Source of the DNA: Phycisphaerae bacterium
GTDB lineage: Bacteria > Planctomycetota > Phycisphaerae > UBA1845 > Fen-1342
Length of the DNA stretch: 64,000 nucleotides
Reading direction: 5' to 3'
NCBI GenBank assembly: GCA_963675745.2
Contig: CAXXWX010000016.1
Span: 160,001 to 224,000 of the forward strand
Each line of letters opens with the position of its first letter. Positions within the stretch are counted from its first letter, which is position 1. The notes under the pieces are model-generated. The model searched no databases. It saw nothing but the letters and a program-made list of their open reading frames with translations, and was not told where the DNA came from. Below, in pieces: positions 27,869 through 57,690 of this stretch. Both the position numbers and the translations under genes were made by a program.

Positions 27869-27889
27869 TATCTATATCCTCCAGTCCGA

Positions 27890-28435: not shown

Positions 28436-28454
28436 ACTATCTCACTCCCTTCTG

Positions 28455-29165
28455 CTATTTCGCCGCCGGGGCTTCGATGTCCGAACCAATCGGCTTCTCG
28501 TCGTACAGACGCTGTCCGATTGGGACGGCGTATCCGGTGCGTTTCTTCAGCAGCGCCCCGACCGGGCAGGCCTCGACCGCCTGGTCGGCTACATTGATAT
28601 TCGTGTCCGCCAGCTTGGCGTCAGAATTGACGGCGATCCGCTTTTCCGGGCCGCGCCCGACAAACTGGAAGACGTTCTTGCCGTCGACATCGCGCGAAGT
28701 GCGGATGCAGCGCGCGCACAGGATACAACGGTTGCGGTCGATCAGAATGTCCGGGTGCGAAGCATCAACCTCGCGCTTCGGATACATGTAGGGATACTTC
28801 GGCGCGGTTATGCCAAAGCGGTAGGCCAGCGCCTGAAGCTCGCAGTTGCCGCTCTTCTCGCAATACATGCAGTAGTGATTGCCCTCGACGAAGAGCATCT
28901 CGATCAGGTTGCGGCGTAGATTCGTGAGGCGCTCGGTGTTGTTTTCCACGATCATCCCGGGGCCGATCGGCTGCGTACACGCCGTCTGCGGTCGGCCGTT
29001 GACCATCACCATGCACACCCGGCAACTGCCGAACGGTGAGAGCCCCTTGTAGGCGCACAAACGCGGGATATAAACCCCGGCGTCATCGGCGGCTTCCATG
29101 ATCGTCTGCCCGGGCCGGCCAGAGATTTCGACGCCGTCGATGGTGAATGTAATCGTATCGCTCAT
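28455..29165 (-). CDS. hoxU: Diaphorase Fe-S subunit
   Basis: IPRLC, GSCRVC, HYCMYC..C, RCILCARC (NuoG N-terminal-like). Confidence 0.93.
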   Translation of the reverse strand: MSDTITFTIDGVEISGRPGQTIMEAADDAGVYIPRLCAYKGLSPFGSCRVCMVMVNGRPQTACTQPIGPGMIVENNTERLTNLRRNLIEMLFVEGNHYCMYCEKSGNCELQALAYRFGITAPKYPYMYPKREVDASHPDILIDRNRCILCARCIRTSRDVDGKNVFQFVGRGPEKRIAVNSDAKLADTNINVADQAVEACPVGALLKKRTGYAVPIGQRLYDEKPIGSDIEAPAAK

Positions 29166-29182
29166 ATCACATCCCTTCCGTA

Positions 29183-30997
29183 TCAGTGGGCATGAATCGA
29201 CTTGCGGCCCGTAATCTCTTCAGCGTCCGCCACCGCCGCGCCCAGGTCGAACGACGGCTGGAGCCCCTCGTCATCATCCTTGACCAGCGCGTTGTACACG
29301 AGGCGGAAGCTCTTCAGCGTCGTCAGAATCGGGTTCGGCGACGTCTGCCCCAGCCCGCACCGGCTCATTGTCTTCACGGTTTCCGCAAGCTCCTGCAGAT
29401 AGTCCAGATCCGACGGCACACCACGCCCCTCGAGGATTCTCACCAGGCGCTCCTTCAACAGCACATTACCGACACGACACGGGGTGCAATAGCCGCAGCT
29501 CTCCTCGATGAAGAACTCCATGAAGTGCTTGACGATGTCGAGGATGTTGCGCTGGGGGCCGAAGACCATGAACGCCCCGCCCGTGGCAAGGTCGTCGAAG
29601 CAGATCTTGCGTTCAAAGCCATCCGGGGCAACCATCGTGCCGCTGGCCCCGCCGACCTGCACCGCGATCGCATCCTCGCCGCCGGCGAGCTTCAATACTT
29701 CACGAACCGTGACGCCAAACGGGAGCTCGTATACGCCGGGCCGCCGGCAATCACCAGAGACGCTCAGCAGCTTGGTGCCCGTGCTGCCTTGCGAACCGAA
29801 CTCGCAAAACGCGGCCGGTCCGTTTTCCAGGATCTTGGTCACCGCGCACAACGTCTCAACGTTGTTGACCACTGTCGGACAACCCAGATAGCCCTTCTGC
29901 GCCGGGAACGGCGGGCGGTTCTTCGGATCGCCGCGCAAACCCTCGCACGAGCTGATCAGCGCGGTCTCCTCGCCGCAGACATATGCTCCGGCCCCCATCT
30001 GAATGCGAATGTCGAAATCAAAACCCTCTTTGCCGCACACTGATTTTCCGAGCAGCCCCGCCTCGCGACGTTGCTGGATAATGTGCTCGAGGTAAACGCG
30101 CAGGTATGCATACTCGGCGCGCAGGTAGACGATGCCCGTGTCCGCGCCGATCGCATAACCAGCGATCGTCATGCCGGCCAGAACTCGGTCGGGGCGTTCC
30201 GTCAGAATCACGCGATCCTTGAACGTCCCGGGCTCGCCTTCGTCCGCGTTGCAGAGCACGTAGCGCTGGCGACCTTCAGCCGCGCGACAGAACTCCCACT
30301 TCATACCGGTTGGGAACCCTGCCCCGCCACGGCCGCGCAGCCGCGCTGCCTTCACCGCGCGGATGACCTCCTTCGGGCTCATACCCACGGCCTTGCCGAT
30401 CGCGGCGCCGGGGTTGATCGGGCTGAAGATCAATGGCACCTCGGTGCGCAGGTTGTTGCGCACCATTGAATTGACCAGGTCGTGAGCGTTGTTGCCGTCG
30501 CCGAATTCGGTGACCAGCTTGTACGGGTCGCCGTGCTCGCGGAGCTGGGCCACAATATCCCTGGCACGGTCGCTGGACAGCCGCGTGACCGGCACGTCGT
30601 TGACCAGCGCCGCCGGCGCCTGGTCGCACAGCCCGATGCAGGGCGCCTCTTCCAGCGTGATCTTGCCGTCCTCGGTGGTTTGCCCCACCTTGATGCCCAG
30701 CTCATCCTCGAACACTCTGCGAATTCGGGCGGCGCCGTGCATGCGATCGATTATGTCGTTGCACAAGCGAATCACGACGTGGCCCTTCTTACGATCCGAG
30801 AGGTAGGAGTAGAAAGAGACCACGCTTTCCACCTCCACTCGGTGCGTGTTGACGGTCCGCGCGATCAGCGACATTGCGTCGCCGCTCACGCAGCCGAATT
30901 CGCCTTGCACCGCGCGGACGATATCCATCATCCGCGCGCGGTCGTTGTTAAACGCCGCGCAAATCGCTTTGACCGATCTTTCCAGACTCTTGCTCAT
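29183..30997 (-). CDS. hoxF: NAD(H) diaphorase subunit with NuoE-like N-terminus fused to NuoF
   Basis: GRGGAGFPTG, NADEGEPGTFKDR, GAGAYVCGEETAL, ESCGYCTPCR..C. Confidence 0.93.
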   Translation of the reverse strand: MSKSLERSVKAICAAFNNDRARMMDIVRAVQGEFGCVSGDAMSLIARTVNTHRVEVESVVSFYSYLSDRKKGHVVIRLCNDIIDRMHGAARIRRVFEDELGIKVGQTTEDGKITLEEAPCIGLCDQAPAALVNDVPVTRLSSDRARDIVAQLREHGDPYKLVTEFGDGNNAHDLVNSMVRNNLRTEVPLIFSPINPGAAIGKAVGMSPKEVIRAVKAARLRGRGGAGFPTGMKWEFCRAAEGRQRYVLCNADEGEPGTFKDRVILTERPDRVLAGMTIAGYAIGADTGIVYLRAEYAYLRVYLEHIIQQRREAGLLGKSVCGKEGFDFDIRIQMGAGAYVCGEETALISSCEGLRGDPKNRPPFPAQKGYLGCPTVVNNVETLCAVTKILENGPAAFCEFGSQGSTGTKLLSVSGDCRRPGVYELPFGVTVREVLKLAGGEDAIAVQVGGASGTMVAPDGFERKICFDDLATGGAFMVFGPQRNILDIVKHFMEFFIEESCGYCTPCRVGNVLLKERLVRILEGRGVPSDLDYLQELAETVKTMSRCGLGQTSPNPILTTLKSFRLVYNALVKDDDEGLQPSFDLGAAVADAEEITGRKSIHAH

Positions 30998-31140
30998 CAG
31001 CGTCCTCGCTCAATCTGTGAGCCCAATTACGCCCCCGACTTACGCCGACACCGGCTCGCCAATGTGTCGGAGTGTCGCTCCCTGTCTGGCAGTCGCACGG
31101 GCGCCCTGCGTCCCGTGCCGAACTGCCCCGCGTCTGTGCG

Positions 31141-31803
31141 TCACGCCTCTGTGCGCGCCGCGCGCTGCTCGCGCAACCAGGCGAGCCAGCTATCCATACC
31201 CTGCCCCGTTCGAGCCGCGAGCTCGATCAGCGGGGCCCGTGTGTTGATGCGCGACAGGTCGTCACGCACTTGATCAATCGCAAAGTCGAGCACGCCGCTC
31301 AGATCCATCTTGGTGAGCAGGATGGCGTCGGCGCGTTGAAAAAGTGTCGGGTACTTGGCGACCTTGTCGTCACCCTCGGGGACGCTCAGCAACACAACCC
31401 GCAGGTGCTCGCCGAGGTCAAAGGCCGCCGGACAGACCATGTTGCCGACGTTCTCAATAAACAGATAGCCCACGCCCTCCAGGTCGAGCGTGCCCAACCC
31501 CTCCGCCACCTGGGCGGCGTCGAGGTGGCAGCCGCGCCCGGTGTTTATCTGCGTGATCGATGCCGCCAGGTCACTGAGCCGCTCGGCGTCGCGCGACGTC
31601 TGCAAGTCCCCCACCAGCACCGCGGCCCGGCACTCGCCGGCCAGCGCCGCCAGCGTCTTCTCCAGCAGCGTTGTCTTGCCGCTGCCGGGCGCGCTCATCA
31701 GGTTGAGCGTCAGCAAACCGGCGGCCGTCATGCGCTGGCGGTTCTCGCGCGCCAGTGCGTCATTGACCTTGAGCACGCTTTCAACGACGTTCACTTTCTT
31801 CAT
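31141..31803 (-). CDS. hypB: Hydrogenase nickel-insertion GTPase
   Basis: SAPGSGKTT, GCHLDA, ENVGNMVCPA, TKMD. Confidence 0.95.
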   Translation of the reverse strand: MKKVNVVESVLKVNDALARENRQRMTAAGLLTLNLMSAPGSGKTTLLEKTLAALAGECRAAVLVGDLQTSRDAERLSDLAASITQINTGRGCHLDAAQVAEGLGTLDLEGVGYLFIENVGNMVCPAAFDLGEHLRVVLLSVPEGDDKVAKYPTLFQRADAILLTKMDLSGVLDFAIDQVRDDLSRINTRAPLIELAARTGQGMDSWLAWLREQRAARTEA

Positions 31804-32168
31804 GTCGCATCCGCGCTTTCCGCGAGCTCCAATACAACCGATCTCAGAATAATCTCGTTGCCGTCGATGATGCGCACATCGGCCTGCCCACATTCGGGGC
31901 AGGCGAAGCTGTAATCCACATCCGGCTCGAACCGCCGACCGCAACGCCGGCACTCCGCCAGCGCCGGCACCTCAACCATCTTCAACTCGGCGCCGGCGGC
32001 GATACTCTCCGTTCGCACGGCTTCCCAGGACATCGCCAGCGCCTCGGGCACGACCATTTGCATCCGCCCGATTGCCAGCTCAACCTCTGCCACGCGTTCA
32101 GCACCTTGCTCGCCCGCGTGCGCGAGCACCTGCTCGAGGACGTTTACTGCGATCGACATCTCGTGCAC
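31800..32168 (-). CDS. hypA: Hydrogenase nickel metallochaperone
   Basis: GTG start giving MHEMSIA; CRRC...CPEC. Confidence 0.93.
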   Translation of the reverse strand: MHEMSIAVNVLEQVLAHAGEQGAERVAEVELAIGRMQMVVPEALAMSWEAVRTESIAAGAELKMVEVPALAECRRCGRRFEPDVDYSFACPECGQADVRIIDGNEIILRSVVLELAESADAT

Positions 32169-32238
32169 AGCGCTGAAACTCCACGTTCTCTTTGCTGCGC
32201 GCCGTCGCGGACCCGCCGCGGGCGCGCTCATCGCGACC

Positions 32239-33255
32239 TCAACATATCCGCGGCAGATCCTCGCCATACGGACGCTGCACCACGCGCCGGCCGCCCACTG
32301 ACGTCAACAGCTCAACCATCGGTGTCTCGGCCGAGCGCAACCGGCCGATCACCGCCGCGTGCCGCCCAAGCGGGTGCGCCCGGCAGGCTTTCAGCACGCG
32401 CTCGGCGTCCTCCCGCGGCACCACGGCAACACATTTGCCCTCGTTGGCAACCGTTAACGGATCCAATCCGAGCAGTTCGGCCGCATGCCGCGCCATCGGC
32501 GTGAGCGGTACGGCGTCTTCCTCGATCTCTACGGCCAGACCCGTGCTCTCCACGATGTCAGCCAGCACGCCGGCCAGACCACCACGCGTTGGGTCACGCA
32601 GAAACCGCAGGTCGGCCCCGGTCGCAAACATGCAGCCGATCAAATCACCCAATGGTGCCGCGTCGCTCCGCAGGTCGGTCTCGAACGCCAACCCCTCGCG
32701 CGCCGACATCACGGCCAGGCCATGCTCCGCGATCCCGCCGTTGATAATGATCACGTCGCCGGGGCAAACGCGGCCCACGTCGACTCGTGCATCATCGCGC
32801 ATCTCGCCGACGCCGGCGGTCGTGATTGTCAGGCCGTCCACGCCGCGGCGCTCGATGACCTTGGTGTCTCCCGTGCCGATCACCACACCCGCCTCGCGCG
32901 CGGTAGCGGCAATCGAGTCGATAATTCGGCCAAGCGTCGCCAACGGCAACCCTTCCTCTATCACCAGTGCCAGGCTCAGCACTTTCGGCGTCGCACCGGC
33001 CACTGCCAGATCATTCACCGTTCCACATACGGCCAGACGCCCGATATCGCCGCCCGGAAACTCCAGCGGCTGTACGACGAACGCATCGGTGGTCATGCAA
33101 ACGGCGCCGCTCATCGGCGATATAACCGCCGAGTCAGACAGCGGATTGAGCAACGGGTTGCCGAGCTTGGGCACGATGTGCTCTGCCAGCAGGCGCCGCA
33201 TCAGCTCCCCCCCACCGCCATGCGCCAGCACAATTCGCTCGTCGGCCGCGGTCAT
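32239..33255 (-). CDS. hypE: Hydrogenase maturation protein HypE
   Basis: LAHGGGG, GTVNDLA, RDPTRGG, C-terminal LPRIC. Confidence 0.96.
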   Translation of the reverse strand: MTAADERIVLAHGGGGELMRRLLAEHIVPKLGNPLLNPLSDSAVISPMSGAVCMTTDAFVVQPLEFPGGDIGRLAVCGTVNDLAVAGATPKVLSLALVIEEGLPLATLGRIIDSIAATAREAGVVIGTGDTKVIERRGVDGLTITTAGVGEMRDDARVDVGRVCPGDVIIINGGIAEHGLAVMSAREGLAFETDLRSDAAPLGDLIGCMFATGADLRFLRDPTRGGLAGVLADIVESTGLAVEIEEDAVPLTPMARHAAELLGLDPLTVANEGKCVAVVPREDAERVLKACRAHPLGRHAAVIGRLRSAETPMVELLTSVGGRRVVQRPYGEDLPRIC

Positions 33256-34355
33256 CAGTTGCGTGCCCCCGCTTCCGCGTATCGGCCGGGCCGGCCATAT
33301 TTGTGCCAGGCGGCGCAGGTACCCTCACTGCTCACCATGCACGGGCCGATGGGCCGCGTCGGCGAACACGTCGTTCCAAACAGCGAACACGCCACCGGAT
33401 CCACCTTCCCTTGAATGACCTCGCCGCAAAGGCACCCCGGCGGCTCGTGGTCAGCGCCATACGTCACACCGAGCGCGTGCCGCGCATCAAAACGTCGATA
33501 CTCCTCGCGCAATTCCAGGCCGCTGCGCGGTATCGTGCCCATGGCGCGCCAGACGGCATCTTGCACCGCGAATACGCGATCAATGCAGGCCCGCCCGGCC
33601 GAGTTGCCGTCGTGGTTCACCGCGACGCCGTATACGTTCTCGACCGACGCATTACCCGCAACGGCCTGCTCAACCAAGCGCAGAATCCCTGTCAGCATTT
33701 GCGCCGGCTCGAATCCGACCACAACGCACGGCTTGTGAAACTGAGTGGCGATCGGCTGATAGGCGTCGGAGCCGATGACAACGCTCACATGCCCCGGACA
33801 CATGAATCCGTCAATCGGAACGTCGCCGGCGGCCAGCAACGCAGTCATCGCGGGAATCACGAGCTTATGCGCTGACAGGATGGTGAAATTCGTGAGCTGC
33901 GCTGCCTCAGCTTCCAGCACCGCCGCCGCAGTCGCGGGCGCGGTCGTCTCAAACCCGACCGCGAGGAAGACAACCTGCTCGCTCGGGTGACGCGTGGCAT
34001 ACTGCACGGAGTCGCGCGCCGAGTAAACCACGCGTACGCGCGCCCCTCGGCCGCGGCACGCTTCGAGGCTGTCCAGCCGACCGGGCACGCGTACCATGTC
34101 GCCATAGGTACAGATGGTCAATTCAGGGCGCGCGGTTAGCTCGCAGGCGGCGTCGATATACGCGCTGGAAGTGACACAGACCGGACACCCGGGCCCGCTG
34201 ATCAGCCGAACGCGCTCGGGCAGCATCGACTTGATGCCGCTGCGGAACAAGGCGACGGTGTGCGTGCCGCAGACCTCCATGATCCGGATGGGGTCGCAGT
34301 TGCGCAGCAGGCGGCCGATTCGTCCGATAATGTCTTGTGCATCCACGTGTGCCAC
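33255..34355 (-). CDS. hypD: Hydrogenase maturation protein HypD
   Basis: MEVCGTHT, GPGCPVCV, GFETT, PGHVS, CMVSSEGTC. Confidence 0.96.
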   Translation of the reverse strand: MAHVDAQDIIGRIGRLLRNCDPIRIMEVCGTHTVALFRSGIKSMLPERVRLISGPGCPVCVTSSAYIDAACELTARPELTICTYGDMVRVPGRLDSLEACRGRGARVRVVYSARDSVQYATRHPSEQVVFLAVGFETTAPATAAAVLEAEAAQLTNFTILSAHKLVIPAMTALLAAGDVPIDGFMCPGHVSVVIGSDAYQPIATQFHKPCVVVGFEPAQMLTGILRLVEQAVAGNASVENVYGVAVNHDGNSAGRACIDRVFAVQDAVWRAMGTIPRSGLELREEYRRFDARHALGVTYGADHEPPGCLCGEVIQGKVDPVACSLFGTTCSPTRPIGPCMVSSEGTCAAWHKYGRPGRYAEAGARN

Positions 34356-34376
34356 AAATCTGCCGTGTACCGTTGC

Positions 34377-34652
34377 CTAGGCGTCGTCCCCGTTGTCCTG
34401 CCCGGGGACTTCATCCACGAGCTCCGCTTCCTTCAGGTACTTCCACGTCTCAAGCGCCTCCGCCTCATCCAGCACCGATAGCGCATAGCCGGCATGCACC
34501 AGCAGCCAATCACCAACGGCTGCCTCGGGTGTAAATGCGAGGCCTATCTCCAACCGGCTGCCCTGAAAATCCACTGTGCCGACACGCCCGGTTGGCGTCC
34601 CATCCGGACCGCCGGCGATCTCAATCAGCTTTCCGGGAACCGCAAGGCACAT
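34377..34652 (-). CDS. hypC: Hydrogenase assembly chaperone
   Basis: MCLAVP, LLVHAGYA. Confidence 0.96.
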   Translation of the reverse strand: MCLAVPGKLIEIAGGPDGTPTGRVGTVDFQGSRLEIGLAFTPEAAVGDWLLVHAGYALSVLDEAEALETWKYLKEAELVDEVPGQDNGDDA

Positions 34653-34703
34653 CCGCTGACTCCGGCATCATGAGGGCAACACACGCTTGACACAATATAG
34701 CGA

Positions 34704-34719
34704 TGTGAAATCATTCACA
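34704..34719. promoter_or_regulatory. Rex-like (or CRP/FNR-family) operator upstream of the hyp-hox operon
   Basis: TGTGAA-ATCA-TTCACA, 52 bp upstream of hypC and next to a minus-strand -10-like TATATT (34694-34699). Confidence 0.6.
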
Positions 34720-34974
34720 GCGCTTCGCGCTTCATGTTGCAAGTGGCGTTCCGCCGAGGGTCGGCATTGCCCGCCCTTCCCGTCGCACACTCGCCCTAAA
34801 TACGCTTTTCTCAAGAGGATAACCGAACTTGCGCGCGGGTGTTAACCCGCAAGGCTGCGGATAATTACACACGACTTGCCCCAGCGCGCCAGATTGCTTG
34901 AATACCAATACGCACGATTAATATATTAATCATTGGCGGCCTGCAATGGGATTGCTCATCGCGGGCTGGGGATA

Positions 34975-35883
34975 ATCGGGTAGCCGGGGAGGTTGCCCTG
35001 CCCCGGCTCCCACACCACCGTACGTACGGTTCCGTATACGGCGGTTCACGAGCAACCCGCGAGTCGCCGATGCTCGTCCATCAGGCTGATCAGCCCGAGT
35101 CCGCGCAGTTCGGAGGTCGGGACGGCGTGGTTCATGTGACGGGCCCCGGCGTTCCACCAGGGACCACGCCCATTCCACGCCGACTGCCGGGCCCGCTCAT
35201 GATCCAGGCCCCGCCGGCACAGCTCCCTGAACTGGGTCCGGTGTCGCTTCCACTGTCGCCACAGGATGCAGCGCAGTTTTCGTCGTAACCACTGGTCCAG
35301 TTGCTCGAAGCTCGCCTTGACCTCCGCGAGCTTGTAGTACGCCACCCAGCCCCGCAGTACGCGGGTCAGGGATTCGGCGACGCGGGCGAGGTTGCAACCC
35401 CGTCCGCGACGCAGCATGGGGCGGAGCTTGGCCTTCAATCGGTGCACCGATTGCGGGGCCACCTTCAGCTTCGGCTGCCGGTGCATGGTCACGGTGTAGC
35501 CCAGGAACTTGCGGGTCCAGGGCCGATCCACCGCGCTCTTCTCACGGTTCACGTGGAGACGCAGTCGCTCCGTCACGAACCGCTCCACCGAATCGAGCAC
35601 CCGTTCGCCCGCACGCCTGGACCGCACGTAGATGTTGCAGTCGTCAGCATAGCGAACGAATCGATGGCCGCGCCGTTCCAGCTCCTTGTCCAGCTCATCG
35701 AGCAGGACGTTGCTCAACAGCGGCGATAGCGGCCCACCCTGCGGTGTGCCCTCGGCCCGGGGCGAGACCAGCCCGCCCTCCATCATCCCCGCCTGTAGAT
35801 AGCGGCGGAGGAGGAGTAACACCTTCTTGTCCTTGACCCGGCGCGCCACGCGTGACATGAGCACGTCGTGGTTCACCCGGTCG
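34975..35883 (-). mobile_element. 3' part of a class C-like group II intron (RT C-terminal half, domains V-VI)
   Basis: Minus-strand DV GAACCGCCGTATACGGAACCGTACGTACGGTGGTGT, DVI ending ...CTACCCGAT at 34975. Confidence 0.9.
35046..35883 (-). pseudogene. ltrA: Group II intron RT/maturase, C-terminal half
   Basis: FDRVNHD, GTPQGGPLSPLLSN, RYADD, KFLGY, maturase X domain; cut at the FFD motif. Confidence 0.9.
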
Positions 35884-35956
35884 AAGGAACACACGACACA
35901 CTACCCACATCCGCGACCTTCCCGCCACCGTCACGGTCCTCCGTAAACGTCATCCG

Positions 35957-36415
35957 ATGGAAGGTAAGGCGCTGCGCATCCATGGACATCTTCATCGAAA
36001 CGGTTGCTACCTTCTGGTGTTGGAGTTGCCGGACGGCACACGATCGCTGATCCCGGCCTGCTGGACCGATCTGGACAGAGTGTCGTCACCAACTCCTGAC
36101 GCCGAGACCCCGTCGAGCACATCACAATTGCTCGGATTGGTTCGTGACTTGCTCCAGGCCCGCAAGGTCGTGGATGCTCTGCTGCGAAGGCTGGAGGCTC
36201 AATCGCCATCAGCGAATGGCCTTTCGCAGGAGGAGCGCCGCGATGCAATACCAACTGGAGTTCTGGCCCACGACGGAGGTGGTTCTCCACAAGCACGAGC
36301 CATGGGAGAACTTGGGCATCAACGAGCAAGCCGAGCGAATCGCCCTGTTGGCGCGCTTGATCGCAAAGGCCGTATGTCCGGAGCGGGACGACGCGACGCA
36401 GGAGAGCAGCCATGA
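35957..36415 (+). CDS. DUF5372-like accessory protein; frame stays open 5' to the element end
   Basis: VTVLRKRHP..G..LELPDGTRSLIPACWTDL pattern (family call from recall); TGA overlaps the recombinase ATG (ATGA). Confidence 0.65.
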   Translation: MEGKALRIHGHLHRNGCYLLVLELPDGTRSLIPACWTDLDRVSSPTPDAETPSSTSQLLGLVRDLLQARKVVDALLRRLEAQSPSANGLSQEERRDAIPTGVLAHDGGGSPQARAMGELGHQRASRANRPVGALDRKGRMSGAGRRDAGEQP

Positions 36416-36422
36416 GCAGTAA
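36243..36422 (+). CDS. Small (59 aa) accessory protein overlapping the recombinase start
   Basis: Strong SD AGGAGGAG before ATG 36243; MQYQLEFW..W..ALLARLI; stop lies inside the recombinase 5' end. Confidence 0.55.
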   Translation: MQYQLEFWPTTEVVLHKHEPWENLGINEQAERIALLARLIAKAVCPERDDATQESSHEQ

Positions 36423-38634
36423 CGAGAAGATCAAACCGACTCACTTGGATCGCAACGCCTACGTGTACGTGCGTCAGTCCACGGCCACGCAAGTTCAACA
36501 CAACCGCGAGTCTACCCGCCGACAGTACAAGTTGGTGGATCGCGCCATCTCTTTGGGATGGCCGAAGGAGCGAGTCAAAGTCATTGACGAGGACCTGGCC
36601 CGCTCGGGCGCCGGCAACGTGGAACGCGACGGGTTCACCCGAATGACGGCCGAGGCGGCCCTGGGGCAGGTCGGGCTGATCCTCTCGATCGAAGTCTCAC
36701 GCGTCGCGCGCAACAATGCCGACTGGTATCGGCTGCTGGATCTGTGCGGCGTGACCGACACGCTGATCGGCGACGAAGACGGTCTGTACCACGCCGGCCT
36801 GTTCAACGATCGACTGCTCCTTGGACTGAAGGGCACGATGGCGGAAGCCGAACTGCACGTCATTCGGGCCCGGCTGGATGGTGGTATCCGCAACAAGGCT
36901 GCACGCGGCGAGTTGCGTCGCGGGCTTCCGGTCGGCTTTGTCTGGGGCGAAGACGACGGCGAAGTGCTTTTTCATCCCGACCAAGCCGTCACGGGCGCGA
37001 TCCGGGCCGTCTTTGACAAGTTTGCTGAAGTCGGGTCGGCCCGACAGGTCTGGCTCTGGTTCCGAGGTGAAGGGCTCCATTTTCCGCTACAGGCGAACGG
37101 TCTGCGCGAGATCCGCTGGGTGACGCCGACCTACACCGCCATTCACAACATCCTGACCAACCCGGTCTATGCAGGCGCTTACACGTATGGTAAGACTCGC
37201 CAGGAACGATATGTGGACAAAAGCGGTCGGCTCAGGAAGCGGCTGCGCCGCTTGCCGCAATCCGAGTGGGCCGTGCTGATCCAGGATCACCACGAAGGCT
37301 TCGTTGACTGGAACACCTATGAGATGAACCAGGCCCGCCTCAAGCAGAACACCCGCCCGCGTCCTCATCAGGCTGGCGGCGCGGTCCGTGAAGGCACGGC
37401 ACTGCTGCAAGGCATCGCGACCTGCGCCGCCTGTGGACGCCGCCTGAATGTTTACTACCAGGGCCGCAACGCCACGCCCGGCTACTACTGTCCCAGCAGC
37501 AACATCGCCAACGGCAGGGGACGCTGGTGCATGCGCGTCGGCGGAGCGCGGATCGACAAGGCGGTCAGCGCTGCCTTCCTGGAAGCGGTCGCTCCGGCGG
37601 GCATGCGGGCCGCGCTGCAAGCCGAAGAGCTGATCGACGCCGAATACGACAGTGCAGTAGCGCAATGGCGTCTGCAGGTCGAGCAAGCCCATTACCAAGC
37701 CGAGCGGGCTGAGCGTCGTTACCGATCAGTGGAGCCGGAGAACCGCCTGGTGGCTCGAACCCTGGAAGCCGAGTGGAACAAGCGGCTCGACGAACTGACC
37801 ACCGCCGAGGCCGAACTGGCGCGCCGAGAGCATCAACGTCCCGAACGTCTGACTGACCGGCAACGTGAGCGCATTCATCGACTTGGCGCAGACCTGAATC
37901 GCGTATGGGAAGCGTCCACAACGACGGACCGCGATCGCAAGGAGCTACTGCGATCCATGCTCGAGGAAGTCAACATCGCCGTGAACCGCACTGATGCCCA
38001 GGCGCACGTAACGCTCCGTTGGCGTGGCGGGCTGTTCACCGAGATCGATGTGCCGCTCTGGCATCCCAAGGAGACGGTCGTCCGCACTGATGAAGATACC
38101 GTGGATCTCCTGCGGCGACTGGCCGAGCACCATCCCGACGCGATGATCGCCGGTATCCTCAACCGCCAAGGGCGGAAGACCGTCCGCGGCCTGCGCTTCA
38201 GCGCCAACCGTGTCAGCAGCCTGCGGCGAAGTTGGAAGATCCCACGCTACCAGCCGCCAGATACTCCTCCCGAGGGCGAGTTGGTTACCGTGGAGAGAGC
38301 GGCGAAGATCCTCGGTACCGCACCTTCGACCGTACATCGCTGGATCAACGATGGGTTCATCGCCGGCCAGCAGGTGACTCCCGGCGCGCCCTGGCAAATT
38401 CGCGTTGCCGACGACTGGAAGGAACGCTTTGTCGAAGAGCCGCCGCCGGGCTATGTGGCGATGCAGGTCGCAACCCGAATCCTCGGCGTCTCGCGCCAGA
38501 CCGTCTTGCAACGTGTAAAGCGCGGCGAGCTGCAGGCGGTGCATGTGTGCCGCGGCAGGCGCAAAGGCCTTCGTATCAGAGTGTTAGATAATCAGCCGGG
38601 TCTCTTCGACGCGAATCAAAAAGCAGGGGTGTAG
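36412..38634 (+). CDS. Large serine recombinase (resolvase, recombinase, Zn ribbon, coiled coil, C-terminal HTHs)
   Basis: YVRQST catalytic Ser, SRVARN, NPVYAG, CAAC..YYC..WC, two terminal HTH-like segments. Confidence 0.93.
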   Translation: MSSNEKIKPTHLDRNAYVYVRQSTATQVQHNRESTRRQYKLVDRAISLGWPKERVKVIDEDLARSGAGNVERDGFTRMTAEAALGQVGLILSIEVSRVARNNADWYRLLDLCGVTDTLIGDEDGLYHAGLFNDRLLLGLKGTMAEAELHVIRARLDGGIRNKAARGELRRGLPVGFVWGEDDGEVLFHPDQAVTGAIRAVFDKFAEVGSARQVWLWFRGEGLHFPLQANGLREIRWVTPTYTAIHNILTNPVYAGAYTYGKTRQERYVDKSGRLRKRLRRLPQSEWAVLIQDHHEGFVDWNTYEMNQARLKQNTRPRPHQAGGAVREGTALLQGIATCAACGRRLNVYYQGRNATPGYYCPSSNIANGRGRWCMRVGGARIDKAVSAAFLEAVAPAGMRAALQAEELIDAEYDSAVAQWRLQVEQAHYQAERAERRYRSVEPENRLVARTLEAEWNKRLDELTTAEAELARREHQRPERLTDRQRERIHRLGADLNRVWEASTTTDRDRKELLRSMLEEVNIAVNRTDAQAHVTLRWRGGLFTEIDVPLWHPKETVVRTDEDTVDLLRRLAEHHPDAMIAGILNRQGRKTVRGLRFSANRVSSLRRSWKIPRYQPPDTPPEGELVTVERAAKILGTAPSTVHRWINDGFIAGQQVTPGAPWQIRVADDWKERFVEEPPPGYVAMQVATRILGVSRQTVLQRVKRGELQAVHVCRGRRKGLRIRVLDNQPGLFDANQKAGV

Positions 38635-38950
38635 TATGATGATGTCTCCAAGAACCCACGGATGTCGACGTCGAGCACCCAGTTCACCTTCCTCGTCAGC
38701 AGTCCGGTGTACAGGGCGTCCAGCGCGTTGTGCTGGCTGCGCCCCGGCCGGAAGCCGTACGAGAAGCCGAGGAAGTCAGTTTCGTAGATGGCGTTCAACA
38801 CCTCGACCGTGGCCCGGTTGTAAACTGGACGAGCTTGTCTTCCAGCACGGGCACACCGAGCGGCCTTTGCCGCCCGTCGGCTTTGGCGATGTACACCCTA
38901 CGAACCGGCTTGGCTCGGTACGCTCCGCGTTTGAGCCGCGCGGAAAGGTC

Positions 38951-39580
38951 GCGGCGCTGCCACCGATTCAAAACCCGCCACGGAGGCGCCTCCCGGGGCG
39001 ACCACTGCGGAGATCACATCCCTGGAGGCGTCGGAGGTTCTCCTCCAGCGCCTCGCCGTAGGCTTTCCACGTCTGCCCGTCTACACCCGGCGCGGCATCC
39101 CGCTTGAGGCGGAAGTACGCCTCCCGCAGCGTGTCCAGGTTGTAAACGTGGTGCGCTTTCCGGCATTTCGGCGGCGTGCCCAAGACGCTGGTGTCGACAA
39201 CCTCAAGGCTGCGGTCATCAAGGCCGACTGGTTCGACCCGGATCTCAAGGAGCGCGGTGAACCGCATCTTCCTATCACTTCTTGCCGCATGGCGTATCCG
39301 CTCCAACGCACTGGGCAGGTCACTGGAGCGGCGGTAGGTGCATCCCCTTGGCTGTGTCCGCGGTTTCCCGCTCACACGGTACGCATCTTCGACCGGCGTG
39401 CCCGTGTAGGGTTCGCCATATCCGTCTCCTTCGCCCGGCACGGTGTCCGGGACCTGTTTTGCTGGCGCGGATTCCCTTTGGCCAAGCCCAATTCGAGTTC
39501 ATGGATGACCATCCGATCATCCGGAGTCTGGGCGACTACGAACAGTTCGTCCAAACCGCTTTTCGGGAGACAAAGCTATG
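38951..39580 (+). mobile_element. IS21 istA-like fragments interleaved with intron sequence
   Basis: AFRHFGGVPKTLV.DNLKAAVIKADWFDPDL (about 39154-39246), HTVRIFD, EFMDDHPIIRSLGDY. Confidence 0.65.
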
Positions 39581-39717
39581 ATGGTAGAAACACTTCGAGC
39601 CCCTGGCGTCCAAATCGTGGTCGCCGATCCCCTTGAGGGGGAACCAGCGTACCCAGGTTCCCCCTCAAACTCCCCCTCCTTCCTTCATTCCCCTCCGGCG
39701 GGAAGGAGGTGGCGTCT

Positions 39718-40528
39718 ATGAATGAAGCCATGCAGACAGCTTTGAAGAAGTTGCGGCTTTCCGGGATGGCGCAGTCGTTGGAGGTGCGTTTGCAGGAAGC
39801 GTCCAAGCCACGGACTCAACCACGCGGAGTTCTTGGAGCTGATTCTCCAGGATGAGTTGGCCATCCGCGCCGAGCGGCAGATGAACCGGCGGGTCAAGGC
39901 CGCCGCCTTCCGCGAACTCAAGCCGCTCGATCAATTCGACTTCGCGTTCAATCCTTCGATCAAGAAGAAACAAGTGTACGACCTGGCCACCTGCCGGTTC
40001 ATCCGCGAAGCGCGGGACTGCCTCCTGCTCGGTCCTCCGGGCACGGGCAAGAGCTTTTTGGTCCAAGCCCTGGGCTATCAGGCCATCAAGGCGGGATTCA
40101 CGGTGCTGTATCGCTCGATCTTCGATCTGGTGCGCGACTTCCTGCACGACGATGCCTTCGCCGGCATCGACCGAGTGCTAACCAGATACCTCAAACCGGA
40201 CTTAGTCATCATCGACGATTTTGGGATGAAGCAACTGCCGAAGCGCTCGGGGGAGTATCTGTTTGAGATCATCATGCGGCGCTACGAGACCCGCTCTACG
40301 ATCATGACCTCGAACCGGCCGCTGGAGGATTGGGGCAAGGTCATCGGCGACGTCCCGGCCGCTACTGCCATCCTGGATCGCTTCCTGCACCATGCCGAGG
40401 TCATCACCATCACGGGCAAGAGCTACGGCTGCGCAAACCAAGCCCGTGATAGCAAGAGCCCCAACGACCCGACCGACAACATGACGAGAAGAAGGGCAAG
40501 GTTGCGGCTCCCTTGCCGGACCCAGTGA
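39718..40528 (+). pseudogene. istB: IS21-family helper ATPase, frameshifted near 39805 and near the 3' end
   Basis: LKKLRLSGM N-terminus in another frame; GPPGTGKS, VIIDDFG, TSNRP..WG, AILDRFLHH. Confidence 0.85.
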
Positions 40529-41185
40529 GGACGGTATAGAAACATCAACAAAAGTGCTGGGTTTGAGGGCGCTCGCCTGGACTTCTCAGGCGCCTCCCGT
40601 ACTACGAGCGGCGGTAGGTGCATCCCCTTGGCTGTGTCCGACGGTTTCCCTCTGCGTGCCCGTGTAGGGTTCGCCATATCCGTCTCCATCGCCCGGCACG
40701 GTGTCCGGTCCTGTTTTGCTGGCGCGGATTCCCTTTGGCCAAGCCCCTTCCCTCCGCCCCCTCCGCACGGGGACTTCGCAGGTCTACGGGCCTGTCCGAC
40801 TTCTCGCGTCCGTTCATCATCGGCGTGTGGACTTCCCCACGGCCCGCAGCACCATCAGTTGCGGGCGGACACGAGATCTCCCGGTTCTCGCGCGAGGTGT
40901 TTCCGCACATGCACGGGGTCTCAGACCGCGCGGGGTCCCACCGCATCTCGCGATATCGATGCGTCGGATGTAGCCTTCCGCCTACCTCCACGGCGTCGGC
41001 ACCCCAAAGGGAGTTACTTTCGCGGCTCAGTACCCGGCCTGCACGTACCCCTGTCAACGCTTCGCCCCTGCCCTCGCGGGCAACGACGCATGACTCGGGG
41101 CCGCTGTGGGCCGCTAACCCTTCAACGTATGACTCCTTCATTCACTACACCTCGCCGGTTTATCCCGGCGCACGGAGGAACCAAC

Positions 41186-42055: not shown

Positions 42056-42468
42056 TATGATTCGGGGCGCGGGCAGGATAGCTTTTGTCAACAAAGAGAG
42101 GGGTAGCGCAAGTGTGTCGCAGGAGCGGGTTTACGGCACGGAGGGTGACGCTAGCTGGTGCCGGTCAGCACGGCGATGCGTGGCACGGTCTTGACGGCGA
42201 TGCCTGGGACCGCCTGGCCCTGATCCTCCAACGACACGACGGCGTCTGTGCGTTCGCACCTCAGGCTGCGGTGACTTTTCATCAAAGTGGCGAGATTCTC
42301 GCACGCCAACTTCGGTTTTCCGTGGTTTGTAGAGGGGGAGGGTACACCTGCAAGCGGGCGGGTGCAAAGGCTCTCTCGGGTCGGGCAGACGGCTGCCGCT
42401 TGAAGTCCGGCCCTTGCCCGTCTGGCGACTGAACGACTAGAGGCTCATCAGAAACAGGACAATCAACG

Positions 42469-42915: not shown

Positions 42916-44345
42916 GGAGGTATTGTCAAATATCGTTGATGGGCCGGCTTTCAGGCGGCGGCCTTCTCGGGTTTTTCTCCGTCGATGAACTTTGCTCCGG
43001 CGATGACTTCCGGCAGTAGCTTAGCCCCATTCAGCAGTCGCCAGCGTCGGGCGGCCGACTCGCAGAGCTTGAAGACCATCGCCAGGCACGCCACGCGGCT
43101 GCCGTTACCCTTCGTCCGCCGATGACGCAGTCGCACCGTCGCAAACGTACTTTCGATCGGGTTCGTCGTACGCAAGTGCAGCCAGTGCTCGGCCGGGAAG
43201 TCATAGAACGTCAACAACTCGACCCGGTCCTTCTGTAAGCACTCGACCGCGCCTGGGTACTTCGCGCTGTAGGCTGCAGCAAAGTGGTCGAACGCCTGCT
43301 CGGCATCCGCACGCGTCGACGCCATCCAGATCTGGTGCAGCTTCTCCTTCGCCCCGGACTGCACCTTCTTGGCCATCTTGTCCAGCACGTTGGCTGTCTT
43401 GTGCACCCAGCAACGCTGAGCCCGCGTGGTGGGCCACACTTGCGGCAACGCCTTCCAGAAGCCCAGGGCCCCGTCCGCCGTCGCCACCTTTGGGTCGAGC
43501 GTCAAGCCCCGTTGCTTGCAATCCAAGAGCAAGGTGTACCACGATTGCTCACTCTCACGATGCCCGTCGGCCACCGCAATCAGCTCCTTCTTGCCCTCGG
43601 CCGTGGCGCCCATCAAGACCAGAATGCACTGGCGATCCTCCTCCAACCGGACATTGAAGTGGATGCCGTCAGCCCACAGATACACGTACTGTTTGCCTTC
43701 CAGCGTGCGGTGGCTCCAGGACTTGTGCTCGTCCTGCCAGGCCGTCACTAGCCGCGTGATCGTGGTGGCACTCAACCCCGCCACCTGGGGACCGACCAGA
43801 GCCTGCAAGGCCTCGGCGAAGTCGCCCGTGCTCACGCCCTTGAGGTACAACCACGGGATCAGCTCCTCGATGGCCTTCGTCTTCCGCAGGTAGGGAGGCA
43901 GGATCTTCGAGCTGAACCGGGTGATCGGCTGACCTGCCGCGTCGATCGTCTGCCCCTCTTCGTCAATTCCGGCAACGCGTCGGTCCAGCACCCGTGGCTG
44001 CGTGACCGCCACCGGTCCAACTCCAGTGACCAGTCTGCGAGTCGGGTGATGGCCGTTGCGGACCACCTGTCGGCGGCCCTGCTCGTCAGTCAGACTCGCG
44101 TACCGCTCAGTCCAGTCGGCAACCTCCGCCTCAATTGCCTGTCCCAACAGACGTTGTGCCCCGTTCCGTAGGATTTCGGTCAACACATCCCGTCCCGGGA
44201 CTGGAATCGTCGTCGTAGCTTCGCTATTCTCCAACACCGGCGTACTCCTCTGCCCAACGTGGGCGGCTCGGAACCTTCGTTTTCAGATCCCGAGAGTACG
44301 CCGCCTTTTTTCGTCCCGCCATCAACGAAATTCGGTTATACCTCC
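42916..44345 (-). mobile_element. IS256-family insertion sequence
   Basis: Imperfect IRs GGAGGTATTGTCAAATATCGTTGATGG and CCATCAACGAAATTCGGTTATACCTCC; no matching target duplication. Confidence 0.9.
42951..44237 (-). CDS. IS256 transposase
   Basis: LYLKGVSTGDF, YLWADG, ADGALGF, QRCWVHK, TTNPIES. Confidence 0.95.
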   Translation of the reverse strand: MLENSEATTTIPVPGRDVLTEILRNGAQRLLGQAIEAEVADWTERYASLTDEQGRRQVVRNGHHPTRRLVTGVGPVAVTQPRVLDRRVAGIDEEGQTIDAAGQPITRFSSKILPPYLRKTKAIEELIPWLYLKGVSTGDFAEALQALVGPQVAGLSATTITRLVTAWQDEHKSWSHRTLEGKQYVYLWADGIHFNVRLEEDRQCILVLMGATAEGKKELIAVADGHRESEQSWYTLLLDCKQRGLTLDPKVATADGALGFWKALPQVWPTTRAQRCWVHKTANVLDKMAKKVQSGAKEKLHQIWMASTRADAEQAFDHFAAAYSAKYPGAVECLQKDRVELLTFYDFPAEHWLHLRTTNPIESTFATVRLRHRRTKGNGSRVACLAMVFKLCESAARRWRLLNGAKLLPEVIAGAKFIDGEKPEKAAA

Positions 44346-45706
44346 AGTCAGTTGCGGCCGACCACATGGACTACGCAAGCCCAACACTATTCTGGTTTGC
44401 TCCCTATGACCAGGACTATATAATGGATTATACCGTTACGTATACTGCTGACGTCACCAGCATTGTCACTGCAGTTGGAGGGAATGCAGATTACACCATA
44501 GGAGGAGCGCTTGATAAGGACGTCCCTGATCCAGATCCATCTGTCTATCTATACGCTCTAGGGGAGGGCGTTTCCCTGCTCGTGATCTATGAGAGCACAG
44601 CGGAGCCGGTCAGAGACATTATGGTGTACGTTGGGCTAACCTCAACTATGTCGAGCTACCCCCGCTATCACGCAACAGCAACACTTGGGTTTCCGAGTTT
44701 CTATCCAGGCTGCCAAGCCAAGTTCTTCATGAATGTATTGGACGGCCAGGCCAGCATTCCCGGCGAAGACTTCGTCGATCACTTCGTGGTCAACGGCATC
44801 GTTGTGGACGGGGCGCTTGGCACAATTGATATTGGGCACCCATTTGTTCCGGATGCGTGGCAGGGCACACTCGGTCCGGACAACGTCGAGCCCTGCGGCG
44901 TTTGGAACATGTACGACCATGCCTTCGGAGACGCGGGGCCGTTCATGACCCGAGGGGACACATCTTTGACGTTTGACACTACAGACCCCCAGCTCTATCC
45001 GCCAGCCTCGACGCCGGAGGCGATCGGTCACAGCTTCGCGTGCATCTCGTTCATTAACTGCGATCCTCTGCCCGAGCCGGGCGGGGCCTTTGATCGTAAC
45101 GGCAACTCTCTTCAGGACGCTTGCGATATTTACAACGGGACGAGCGAGGACTGTAACGGCAATTGCATCCCGGATGAATACGACATCGCCGAAGCGACCA
45201 GCGATGACTGTCAATGCCCGCCGAACGGCGTGCCGGATGAATGTGACATTGGGTTTGGCGACGTGGTGCTGGGGGAACCGGCGATCTACACCGTGGGTAA
45301 CCGTCCGACAGGTGTAAACGCGACGGCGCAGACCGCCGATGGTCGAACGGTGACTCTGGACATCGATAGTGACGGAGACGGTGATCTCGTGGCTGTCAAC
45401 TGGAGTGGTACTCCGAAGACGTTGACAATTCTCTGGAACGACGGCAGCGGCGATTTCGACGAGACTCCTTCGACGACGGTGGAGCTGACAGGAACCATCA
45501 GCCCGCACCGGGCGGCCGCGGGTGACTTCGACGGGGACGGTGATTACGACTTGGCCGTGGCGCGCGGAACCAGCAGCTCGGGGCAGGTGGCGATCCTGCT
45601 GAACAACGGGCTGGACCTCTCACCGCCGTACGCGTGGTTAGGCTTGACGCAGGCCGCGGACGTTTCCGTGGGGACCGATCCCAGATCGATCGTGACCGCC
45701 GACCTA

Positions 45707-46802
45707 TTGACCATTGAATAGCTAACGCAACAGACGCTGTTTGGCCGATACTCCTATGTATGAGACCCACAGGTACAGCCGAAGAACTGGAGCGGCGTCG
45801 ACGGAGAGCCATCGCGCTGCTAGACAAGGGCCGAGGCGTCCGGGAGGTGGCGGGCATGGTCGGGGCCTCGCCCGCAGCCGTAACTCGTTGGCGCCAGGCC
45901 TACGAGAAACGAGGGGAGGACGGGCTGTGCGCCAAGCCCCATCCGGGACGTACGCCCAAGCTCTCGTTGAAACAACGCCGCAAGTTGATCCGGTTGCTGA
46001 AGCGAGGCCCGGGCAAGCATGGCTATCACACGGAGTTGTGGACGCTGAAGCGGGTGGCCGAGGTGATCCGCAAGCACTTCGGGGTCCGCTACGACCCCTC
46101 CGGCGTGTGGCACGTCCTGCGGGGGATGGGCTGGAGCTGCCAGAAGCCCGAACGTCGAGCCCGAGAACGCAACGAGAAGGCCATCGAACGTTGGCGGAAG
46201 CAGGACTGGCCACGCATAAAAAAACGCGCGTCGCCGCGGGCGTAGCATTGTTTTTCTCGACGAAAGCGGCTTCATGCTGCAACCGGTGGTCCGCCGCACC
46301 TGGGCTCCCCAAGGCCAAACTCCCATTCATTACAGTTGGGACCGTCGCGATCGGCTCTCGGTTATATCTGCCATCAGTGTGTCCGCCAAACGCCGGCGGC
46401 TCGGACTCTACTTCGACATCCACGATCACAACATCGTCACCGATGATTTTGAGCGTTTCGTGGAAACGCTGCTGCGTCGTCTGCAACGGCGGATCATCCT
46501 GGTCATCGATCGGTGGTCGGTTCACCGTTCGGGGGCTCGACGGCTGCTTCGCCGGTTTCCGCGTCGCGTTCAGCTCGAGTGGCTGCCGGCGTACGCTCCC
46601 GAACTCAACCCCGACGAACAGGTCTGGAAACACACCAAGTATGACGATCTGGCCAACTACATCCCCGATGACATCCGAGCGCTCGGTCGAGCCATCTGCC
46701 GATCGCTTCGTCGGAGCCGAGGTCAACAGCCATTGTTGCGGTCGTTCTTCCCGCACGCAAAGCTCGGATTGTGAGATGTTACATTGTCTGTTCAATGGTC
46801 AA
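45707..46802 (+). mobile_element. IS630-family insertion sequence with TA duplication
   Basis: IR TTGACCATTGAA / TTCAATGGTCAA; TA at 45705-6 and 46803-4. Confidence 0.92.
45760..46774 (+). CDS. IS630 transposase in two frames (HTH ORF 45760..46245; DDE ORF to 46774), likely -1 frameshift at an A7 run near 46218-46224
   Basis: WTLKRV..GWSCQKP; FLDESG, VID, LPAYAPELNPDEQVW. Confidence 0.85.
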
Positions 46803-47697
46803 TAGATTCGGACGGTGATCTTGATCTGGCTACGGCCAACAAGGATTCGGGGAACATCTCCGTGCTTTACAACAATGGGTGGGGAACCTTCGCGGAGGTG
46901 ACGAACTCTCCATTCCTCGTGGGGGATTCGCAGTATGATGACGTTTACGGGATTGTGGCCGGCGACCTCGACGGAGACAACCTAGTGGATCTCGCCGCAG
47001 CGAATTGGACGGACAACTTGGCTGGGATCTTCCTCAATGCAAACAACGGCCCGGATGCCAATCTCAGTTTCACACAGGCAGACTCTCATTCCCTGGGGCA
47101 AGACGATCCCGAGCCCGAAAGCCTGGCGCTAGCTGACTTGGACCACGATGGTCATCTGGATATTGTAAGCGCCAACTACGAGAGCGAAACCGTGGGCGTG
47201 TTGCGGAACTTAGGTGGCAGCCCGTGGGCAGGGTTCGATGCGGTGGAGGAGTACATTCTCCCCTATGGCTTGATCCCGGAGTATGAAATAGCTCCCTACT
47301 TCGTGTTCACGCCCGATCTCGACGCCGACGGGCTCCCGGAAATCTGTACCACAGATGCGACGAACCTACGAGTGCACCTTACCCAGTTCGTCAACTTCAC
47401 GCAGCAGGCCGGTCTGGACTTCGCGGCCCCTGAACACACGGAGCTAGGAACCAGCGGGGATTTCGTGCATGCCGCGGTCGGGGACTTGAACGCTGATGGG
47501 ATGGTGGACTTGGCGGTTGCATGCAAGAAGGGCTCGGGAGAGGTCTGGGTGTTGCTGAACCTTACCGAGCCCCCCAACAGCCGAGACTATAATCCGCCAA
47601 ACGGCACCCCGGACGAGTGCGAATGCCCGGAGGTTGCTACGGTGTCCGCGGTGAGCCCGCCCGACGGGGCGATCGACGCGCGCAAGCCACATCCTAA

Positions 47698-54837: not shown

Positions 54838-54865
54838 ACAGGAGTACCGAGAGTCGAAAGCAGAA

Positions 54866-57649: not shown

Positions 57650-57690
57650 ACGTGAGTGCAAGTGTGAGCGAGTGTCAGAGAGTTTGACTC

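Follow-up and report, generated by a model that had tools for sequence, protein, structure and literature searches.

Locus organization

The window analysed here, a stretch of 64,000 nucleotides of contig C16, carries a small serine-recombinase element lodged between two pieces of group II intron, both of which were found on the minus strand (34975 to 35885 and 38652 to 41173). The features relevant to the analysis are as follows.

26751 to 34974, no strand assigned: host flank with hydrogenase maturation and related genes, copied at the start of contig C2
34975 to 35046, minus: DV/DVI and 3′ end of an intron assigned to class C (IIC) by Rfam and fold
35046 to 35885, minus: 3′ half of a class C-type intron RT/maturase gene, covering the stretch from the F-D in RT motif 3 up to and including domain X, matching three intact resident copies
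35884 to 35885, minus: crossover dinucleotide of the left attachment junction (TT in the intron sense), from junction analysis
35886 to 38649, plus: serine-recombinase element, 2766 nt from core to core (~2.77 kb), antisense to the intron, delimited by its junctions
35886 to 36415, plus: orfA, a small conserved ORF without a family match
36144 to 36422, plus: orfB, a small ORF overlapping the recombinase start, without a family match
36412 to 38634, plus: large serine recombinase of 740 aa, with Resolvase, Recombinase, zinc-ribbon and C-terminal HTH_17 domains
38650 to 38651, minus: crossover dinucleotide of the right attachment junction, from junction analysis
38652 to 39489, minus: 5′ half of an intron RT gene assigned to class E by trees and public contigs, broken by inserts
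39490 to 40605, plus: IS21 istB fragment (1.1 kb), flanked by two copies of an intron stretch that differ from one another
40606 to 41173, minus: 5′ end and ribozyme domains of the class E-type intron (Rfam)
42916 to 44345, minus: IS256-family element without a target duplication, the second candidate for a join between organisms
50147 to 64000, no strand assigned: start of a tract attributed to a different organism (80 kb in total, with second housekeeping copies), running to the contig end

Two intron halves of different classes

A sequence-only reading of the window had proposed that the two RT halves come from class C and class E introns, respectively. When a separate tree was built for each half, the 3′ half fell among class C references and the 5′ half among those of class E, rather than the two branching together. 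These trees were made by quick and FastTree methods, with references for g6, CL2 and ML absent, and their F-like, U and ML groups are clusters defined in our own analysis.

The RT frame of the 3′ half (35885 to 35046) begins F-D-R-V-N-H-D, has the GsI-IIC RT as its top PDB match (E 3e-81), and pairs at a local support of 100 with L181, which is labelled C in Table_3 of PMC8919778. Three intact class C introns of 1887 nt, two on contig C26 and one on contig C7, match this half at 100% identity over 912 nt. Its DV/DVI region (35046 to 34975) matches the Rfam model Intron_gpII at 44.6 bits, with a fold z of -5.3. A short DV with a CGC triad is a feature of class C introns, and the one described in the initial reading is present, with the DV 4 positions shorter than the Rfam model and CGC at the place of the triad. 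Class C introns are described as inserting directly after rho-independent terminators (PMC8919778). By inspection, a terminator-like hairpin and T-run precede all three intact copies as well as an empty insertion site on contig C2, and the exon-intron junction at 34974/34975 likewise follows a terminator.

The 5′ half extends from the intron start at 41173 to 38652, where its RT pieces end in D-I-R-G-F. It is 92% identical to the intact class E protein L165 over 135 columns, whereas its identity to the N-terminal half of the resident intron is only 29-45%. Its 5′ RNA matches the Rfam model group-II-D1D4-6 at 41136 to 40916 (191.6 bits), a model that it shares with L165 and with L114 and L182, whose class E labels are taken from Table_3 of PMC8919778. 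The intact resident copy instead carries D1D4-3 plus D1D4-1, so that the locus is not a single class C intron.

The class E half is not clean. Its RT region contains inserts of ~8, 80 and 93 nt (at ~38817-38825, 38952-39031 and 39155-39247) that are lacking in public contigs of the matching sample, and the intron is further broken by the istB piece, which shows 18 gaps against a public contig. On either side of this piece lie the differing copies of a duplicated stretch of 140-165 nt (39326-39489 and 40606-40746), and overall the half appears garbled when set against the public contigs. A class E maturase C-terminus and class E DV/DVI were absent both at the locus and across the assembly. Judged from sequence comparison, each half belongs to an ordinary member of its class and is present here as an intron fragment.

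The recombinase element and its target

The element occurs as a single copy in the assembly, and its gene content is limited to the recombinase and the two small ORFs, with no mobilisation, conjugation or cargo genes. The zinc ribbon of the recombinase scores 24.1 bits, slightly below the cut-off of 25.3, and a domain search returned no match to DUF4368. The start codon of orfA sits at the opposite end of the element (~38636-38644) and comes into frame only when the two ends are joined, as in a circular form; this arrangement supplies orfA with a start codon in 53 of 53 full-length elements. A Pfam search with orfA gave no match, and three candidate leads (y4bA, Y4bD and DUF5372) were discarded after a literature search that produced nothing relevant. 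A small ORF is annotated at the position of orfB in plasmid relatives. Scans near the left junction gave two weak promoter-like sites, both outside the element, and no terminator.

Both attachment junctions are exact, and the TT in the second F of F-F-D is common to the two, so that the intron halves join at the homologous codon, as had been pointed out from the sequence. The two ends of the element form a quasi-symmetric site around this core. The further proposal of motif-level targeting across intron classes is borne out by approximately 100 relatives, which reveal repeated insertion at one motif. From 105 input loci, those with short flanks (below 90 nt) or without a junction were dropped. 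Of the distinct flanks retained, 52 of 54 on the right and 59 of 63 on the left are RT halves cut at the F-F-D codon; six flanks, from five loci, are not RT. Intron classes A, C, D, E, F-like, G and CL are all struck at the same codon. Among loci with distant recombinases (34-42% identity), RT flanks were found in 0 of 14. L197 is another CL 3′ half that is itself cut at the motif.

On the basis of these comparisons, we take the target to be the D-hydrophobic-x-x-F/Y-F-D motif of intron RT genes, the TT in its second F being the crossover point. The presence of a TT core in 59 of 59 junctions arises partly by construction, since the junction finder favoured an AA core, and the conserved target bases parallel protein conservation and so do not isolate the recombinase's own sequence demand. 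The element is of a minimal large-serine-recombinase type that would excise to a circle and integrate at RT motifs. The comparison of loci shows that it always lies antisense to the intron and that it accommodates the diverse codon choices of seven or more intron classes.

Origin of the hybrid arrangement at this locus

The initial reading had also proposed that the element inserted at least twice at the same motif in divergent introns, and that the copies were then joined by recombination or by assembly. Repeated insertion is demonstrated by the relatives; between the two routes, assembly appears the likelier here, although this is not proven at the element itself. We assign a probability of roughly 70% to the C/E join at this locus being a mis-join. 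The community would hold near-identical element copies in the host's class C intron and in other introns, class E included, and a long-read assembler would have crossed between copies via the shared 2.77 kb, fusing the C 3′ half to the E 5′ half. The contig then ends in the DNA of a second organism.

Several observations favour a mis-join. The start of contig C2 shares 8224 nt with the host flank of the window with 10 mismatches (a comparison within the assembly), and after this dovetail overlap C2 passes through the empty insertion site; the public contigs X6 record 10 and X7 record 18 also depart from the window at 34974. Of the public runs, X6 and X7 gave the contigs compared here, and X1 and X8 gave pieces only. 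The assembly lacks a class E 3′ half, an intact class E intron and a second element, and the garbled state of the E half points the same way. To the right of ~210 kb, contig C16 has a foreign tetranucleotide signature, with scores of 22.6-27.1 against 0 +/- 3.2 (the maximum elsewhere is 13.1; 510 windows), and Der, YchF, NadA and TrpA occur there a second time, at 42-61% identity. Reciprocal junctions, which had been suggested as a test, are absent from the assembly, and in the public contigs of one sample another variant of the element appears with other flanks: an X6 contig carries the element with 6 differences together with 345 nt of another left flank. An X7 contig stops at 38655, exactly where the 5′ continuation of class C parts from that of class E; this contig end and the X6 variant likewise favour a mis-join.

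A less probable alternative, which we nevertheless take seriously, is that part of the host population carries a real hybrid, in which element copies of a C and an E intron recombined, either by homologous recombination across the 2.77 kb or by the recombinase acting between an occupied and an empty site, so that the false join of the contig lies further right, at the IS256 element. Both junctions of the element are biologically exact, the terminator ahead of 34974/34975 matches the situation at three other copies, and X7 record 19 bears the C-element junction with zero differences, with 29 nt on the C side, slightly below the bridging threshold. The genes at 41.2-44 kb are not foreign-like, and a complete plasmid offers a precedent (below). 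Against this stand the lack of a class E intron, partner locus or reciprocal junction in the host assembly (91% complete), the error-rich patchwork formed by the E half and its neighbours, and the depth of the istB piece, which is 5.2 in X6 and 0.3 in X7, unlike the host flank; these ratios are only suggestive, as contig depths are not copy numbers. The depth to the right (3.3-4.8 versus 4.9-13) suits a host sub-population and another organism equally. Since the IS256 element (42916-44345) lacks a target duplication, the false join between organisms may indeed lie there instead of at the element, and because codon usage places the genes at 41.2-50 kb with neither the host nor the foreign set, the switch of organism is not pinned to the element.

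Two further explanations strike us as highly improbable. If the element had entered a pre-existing C/E chimera or an intron class of mixed character, a single insertion event would suffice, but the three intact introns that match the 3′ half exactly have a class C 5′ half, and none of 117 proteins chosen by a class E 5′ half has a non-E 3′ half; this reading is largely refuted. If element-mediated recombination had brought in >80 kb from another Planctomycete, the join could lie at precise attachment sites, and near-identical element variants do occur in the sample. However, the tract carries ordinary housekeeping genes at 42-67% identity to the host copies and reaches the contig end while the host chromosome goes on in C2, and the genome was scored as 6% contaminated.

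Hybrid introns elsewhere

Even where a mis-join is the preferred reading for the present locus, a hybrid of this kind exists in a complete sequence. The complete plasmid of Mycetohabitans rhizoxinica B12 (L094) carries a class E/class CL1A hybrid with the element, which is newly described here, and a sister strain has both introns intact and in tandem. Real hybrids of like design do arise, probably by deletion between the motifs of neighbouring introns, as in Mycetohabitans B12. HKI 454 was considered as a second hybrid and rejected, as it has both introns intact and no element. Cross-class mismatches in short-read and metagenome contigs (5 of 19 confident cases) were likewise not taken for real hybrids, because a collapse over the repeat accounts for them. 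Among 120 proteins picked by a class E 5′ half, 3 were dropped for want of the motif and 0 of the other 117 are element-free chimeric RTs, a small sample in which rare chimeras could be missed.

We raise only as a speculative idea that the element, because its landing site is a single codon in every class, acts as a fixed-breakpoint shuffler: copies would recombine and then excise, leaving chimeric introns and RTs in frame, with the DNA between the introns deleted or rearranged. It is similarly doubtful, although conceivable, that the product would combine ribozyme DI-DIV and RT 0-3 of one intron with RT 3-7, maturase and DV/DVI of another. The first step of such a process is present in the complete plasmid L094.

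Comparison with known systems

TnpX of Tn4451 and TndX of Tn5397 integrate and excise their elements without other element-encoded factors (PMC2475636, PMC5704250), and a circular form is mentioned in the titles of references on these transposons. Like them, the present element has a single large serine recombinase with Resolvase, Recombinase and zinc-ribbon domains, a very short direct repeat at its ends, and a dinucleotide core common to ends and target. Unlike them, it is only 2.7 kb long without resistance or mobilisation cargo, strictly prefers one intron-RT motif, has a C-terminal HTH, and contains an accessory gene that is complete only on the circle. From this comparison, we consider that the element probably works like the Tn4451/Tn5397 transposons yet is not a member of that group.

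The TT core is also found among the large serine recombinases of Durrant et al. (bioRxiv 10.1101/2021.11.05.467528), and by their rule (>3 target clusters at 50% identity) the element family would seem multi-targeting. Unlike the multi-targeting enzymes described in the parts of that work considered, which use relaxed A/T-rich sites, this family uses one homologous codon in diverged genes, and neither DUF4368 nor the non-homologous targets of the DUF4368 clade are seen. The words 'intron' and 'reverse transcriptase' do not occur in the main text of that preprint as available. We found no published description of the element family, which the supplementary database of Durrant et al. may list.

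Each intron half resembles ordinary introns (GsI-IIC for class C, and class E introns; Miura et al. 2022, PMC8919778; Toro and Martinez-Abarca 2013, PMC3552965), the difference being that fragments of two are present here. In the portions of these two papers considered, interruption by a recombinase element is unmentioned, and 'recombinase' occurs 0 times in the former. Some IMEs use the nic site within the oriT of distant ICEs for integration (PMC5704250), and the present element similarly lands on a conserved site of another mobile element. Unlike those IMEs, it is a serine-recombinase mini-element without a relaxase, and its target is a coding motif of a retroelement.

Implications

As a targeting strategy, it is unusual to read one coding motif across intron classes whose proteins are only ~30% alike, and the landing sequence is dispensable to the host and spread through many phyla. 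Element insertion is a possible cause for part of the broken group II introns of bacteria, given that ~30% of representative intron proteins are incomplete (PMC8919778). The more than 50 natural target sites form a panel with which to study or exploit a tolerant integrase. Such elements also produce cross-species mis-joins in metagenome assemblies, in the present case probably bringing in >80 kb of another organism, and their insertion makes unrelated introns into recombination partners.

Architecture of the element and its target codon

The interrupted group II intron RT gene in the window carries a large-serine-recombinase insert (35886-38649), hereafter the element, and is laid out as follows.

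41173, minus strand: 5' end of the class E intron, with an Rfam group-II-D1D4-6 match at 41136-40916
39490-40605: IS21 istB piece, flanked by two differing copies of one intron stretch
reaching down to 38652, minus strand: N-terminal RT half, in pieces
between the RT halves, strand opposite to the intron: recombinase element, 2.77 kb
35885-35046, minus strand: C-terminal RT half
35046-34975, minus strand: DV/DVI

The element encodes a large serine recombinase of 740 aa with Resolvase, Recombinase, zinc ribbon and HTH_17 domains, and a domain search returned no family matches for its two small ORFs. Its ends are quasi-symmetric around a TT core, the dinucleotide common to both junctions (35884-35885 and 38650-38651), which falls in the second F of the RT motif D-I-x-x-F-F-D. 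The halves thus meet at a homologous codon, as the sequence-only reading had proposed.

Two intron classes at one junction

Class labels were taken from the rows of Table_3 of PMC8919778 that concern plasmid introns retrieved as references. Three intact introns of 1887 nt, located elsewhere in the assembly, match the 3' 912 nt with 100% identity up to the junction, where the match ends. These resident introns sit behind hairpin-plus-T-run sites, match Rfam D1D4-3 and D1D4-1 and cluster in trees with a labelled class C protein; the best solved relative of the class C half is the GsI-IIC RT. The 5' half is only 29-45% identical to the resident N-terminal half, and reaches 87% (tblastn) or 92% (over 135 tree columns) with L165, an intact class E protein whose source genome belongs to the same class as the window's genome. 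Separate trees for each half, which were quick or FastTree runs made without bootstrap, gave local support of 95 for a wider E group and 88 for a core E group with the 5' half, and of 100 for class C with the 3' half. The earlier observation that RT halves of two classes flank the element is therefore confirmed.

Recombinase relatives target the same motif

We collected loci around recombinase relatives from 10 genome, 80 metagenome and 15 plasmid regions, with a near clade that is 56-93% identical. Counting distinct flanks of at least 90 nt, dropping loci with shorter flanks or no detected junction, and using a junction finder that is biased towards a TT core, we found RT 5' halves in 52 of 54 right flanks, with F (32), Y (14), C (3) or L (3) as the last residue, and RT 3' halves in 59 of 63 left flanks, opening with F-D (51) or a near variant. 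All detected RT halves are antisense to the element, and the introns targeted (at least 100 bits) belong to classes C, D, E, basal E, F-like, A, G and CL. Distant recombinases (34-42% identity) served as a control: in none of 14 loci did their flanks, up to 1.5-3.5 kb long, contain RT sequence. Non-RT sequence borders the element at five loci (L191, L008, L026, L037 and L045); the L191 target, which reads D-I-D-D-T/F-D, may be another gene with a similar motif. As judged from these flanks, the proposal that such elements target one RT motif across intron classes is supported as real, and we regard the element's limits, core, target codon, class range and orientation as established.

The join in the window is probably an artefact

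Window positions 26751-34974 recur at the start of another contig of the assembly (C2), which runs on through an empty insertion site. This is one of several contig-end overlaps in the assembly, and it indicates that the host chromosome naturally continues on C2. Within the shared stretch, 27890-34652 holds what we take to be a bidirectional hydrogenase-like operon with maturation genes (named by motif). At 8532-8570 of C2, 300 nt past the empty site, 39 nt match the 5' part of the class C intron exactly.

Judged by tetranucleotides, the window's contig (C16) bears a foreign signature from approximately 210 kb to its end. The four 20-kb segments starting at 200 kb give tetranucleotide values of 1.9-2.2 versus 0.97 +/- 0.24, and the projection of the right part is 22.6-27.1 versus 0 +/- 3.2. 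Der, YchF, NadA and TrpA each have a second, full-length copy there, and many other genes in this part are 40-67% identical to copies elsewhere. Given this signature and these second housekeeping copies, C16 is a chimera of two organisms. The second-organism tract exceeds 80 kb (window positions ~50147-64000 and on to the contig end at 287260) and is probably responsible for much of the 6% contamination scored for the genome; findings inside it should not be assigned to the host. The switch itself is bracketed only to ~35-50 kb of the window: log-odds in 2-kb steps are host-like left of 34 kb, mixed from there up to 50 kb, and foreign-like to the right of 50 kb. By codon usage, the genes at 41.2-50 kb do not look foreign.

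We place the mis-join at the element, with a probability of roughly 0.7. A search of the assembly found no class E 3' half and no intact class E intron, and the element is single-copy. Among public contigs from two sequencing runs of a matching sample (X6 and X7), X7 record 19 equals 35857-38655 with zero differences; it includes the junction of the class C half with the element and breaks off at the point from which the 5' continuations of class C and class E would differ. X6 record 12 carries a variant of the element (six differences); 345 nt of a different flank adjoin it on the left, and 23 nt on the right have no match. The sample thus has at least two element copies in different flanks, which is the condition for a mis-join, and no record among the matches listed bridges the junction of the element with the class E half. 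In these public contigs the E half also comes without the 8-, 80- and 93-nt inserts, the istB piece aligns with 18 gaps and 42337-42455 is missing, which marks 38.6-42.5 kb as a poor consensus.

The false join could instead lie at an IS256 copy (42916-44345), which has no target duplication. An IS630 copy (45704-46804) is cleanly inserted, and its one other copy is within the foreign tract, so the DNA from 44.3 kb is assigned to the second organism. Public contigs link the class E intron 5' end (41173) to a site inside IS256 (43215), so IS256 probably harbours other copies of this intron. A gene for a large secreted repeat protein (44366-50008) is apparently broken by IS630 and by a transposase gene (47799-49109). 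A real C/E hybrid within a host sub-population is, in our estimate, unlikely. Of the two origins that the sequence-only reading had allowed, assembly across the repeat is therefore the probable one here and recombination is less favoured; the local join is probably an artefact.

A hybrid in a Mycetohabitans plasmid

Class calls of the two halves disagree in 5 of 19 confident, distinct contig loci (28 examined, nine not confident) and in one of nine confident, distinct plasmid loci (13 examined); in the four non-confident plasmid loci, the best class is identical on both sides. The disagreeing plasmid is a finished record of M. rhizoxinica B12 (NZ_CP062175, L094), with a class E 5' half, the element and a class CL 3' half. 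In HKI 454 (NC_014718), which has no match to the element, both B12 halves have counterparts, 99.7% and 100% identical, with 2680 nt between them; this gap contains the E 3' half and an IS5 piece. The relevant rows of Table_3 of PMC8919778 give canonical E and canonical CL1A introns in tandem at this site. In strain B49, the E intron is present and the IS5 stretch is uninterrupted. These arrangements suggest that B12 lost the DNA between the motif of one intron and that of its neighbour and kept one element. The locus could have arisen by two insertions followed by recombination between them, or from a single insertion, with the recombinase acting on the empty motif next to it. The B12 plasmid record contains no reciprocal halves, and the hybrid may be a collapsed pair of elements in that record.

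In strain B60, two intron halves stand alone, each cut exactly at the F-F-D codon: L197 (NZ_CP062169, ~647780) and L202 (NZ_CP062170). One lacks any element and the other adjoins a recombinase C-terminal remnant; we read them as scars of element-linked rearrangements.

Significance and proposed mechanism

In literature consulted at title and abstract level, mostly outside subscription papers, we found no description of a recombinase element with group II intron RT genes as its target; the element belongs among the large-serine-recombinase mobile elements, a known kind. The window contributes a class-resolved test of the two halves, the demonstration that the contig is chimeric, and the Mycetohabitans pair.

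Serine integrases cross over inside a two-base core, and a non-palindromic core fixes orientation. For TnpX and TndX, PMC2475636 reports that integration and excision need no accessory factors. The body of orfA, a small ORF on the element, occupies 35886-36415, and its start codon and a purine-rich upstream stretch lie at the opposite element end (38636-38649). In all 53 of 53 elements of full length, the ORF acquires its start codon only across the circle junction, and a circular intermediate is thereby suggested. If the element were excised from a hybrid site, the intron left behind would be an in-frame chimera, a form seen in 0 of 117 proteins chosen for their class E 5' half. At an ordinary site, the element would excise to a circle, thereby completing orfA, and precise excision would restore the RT frame.
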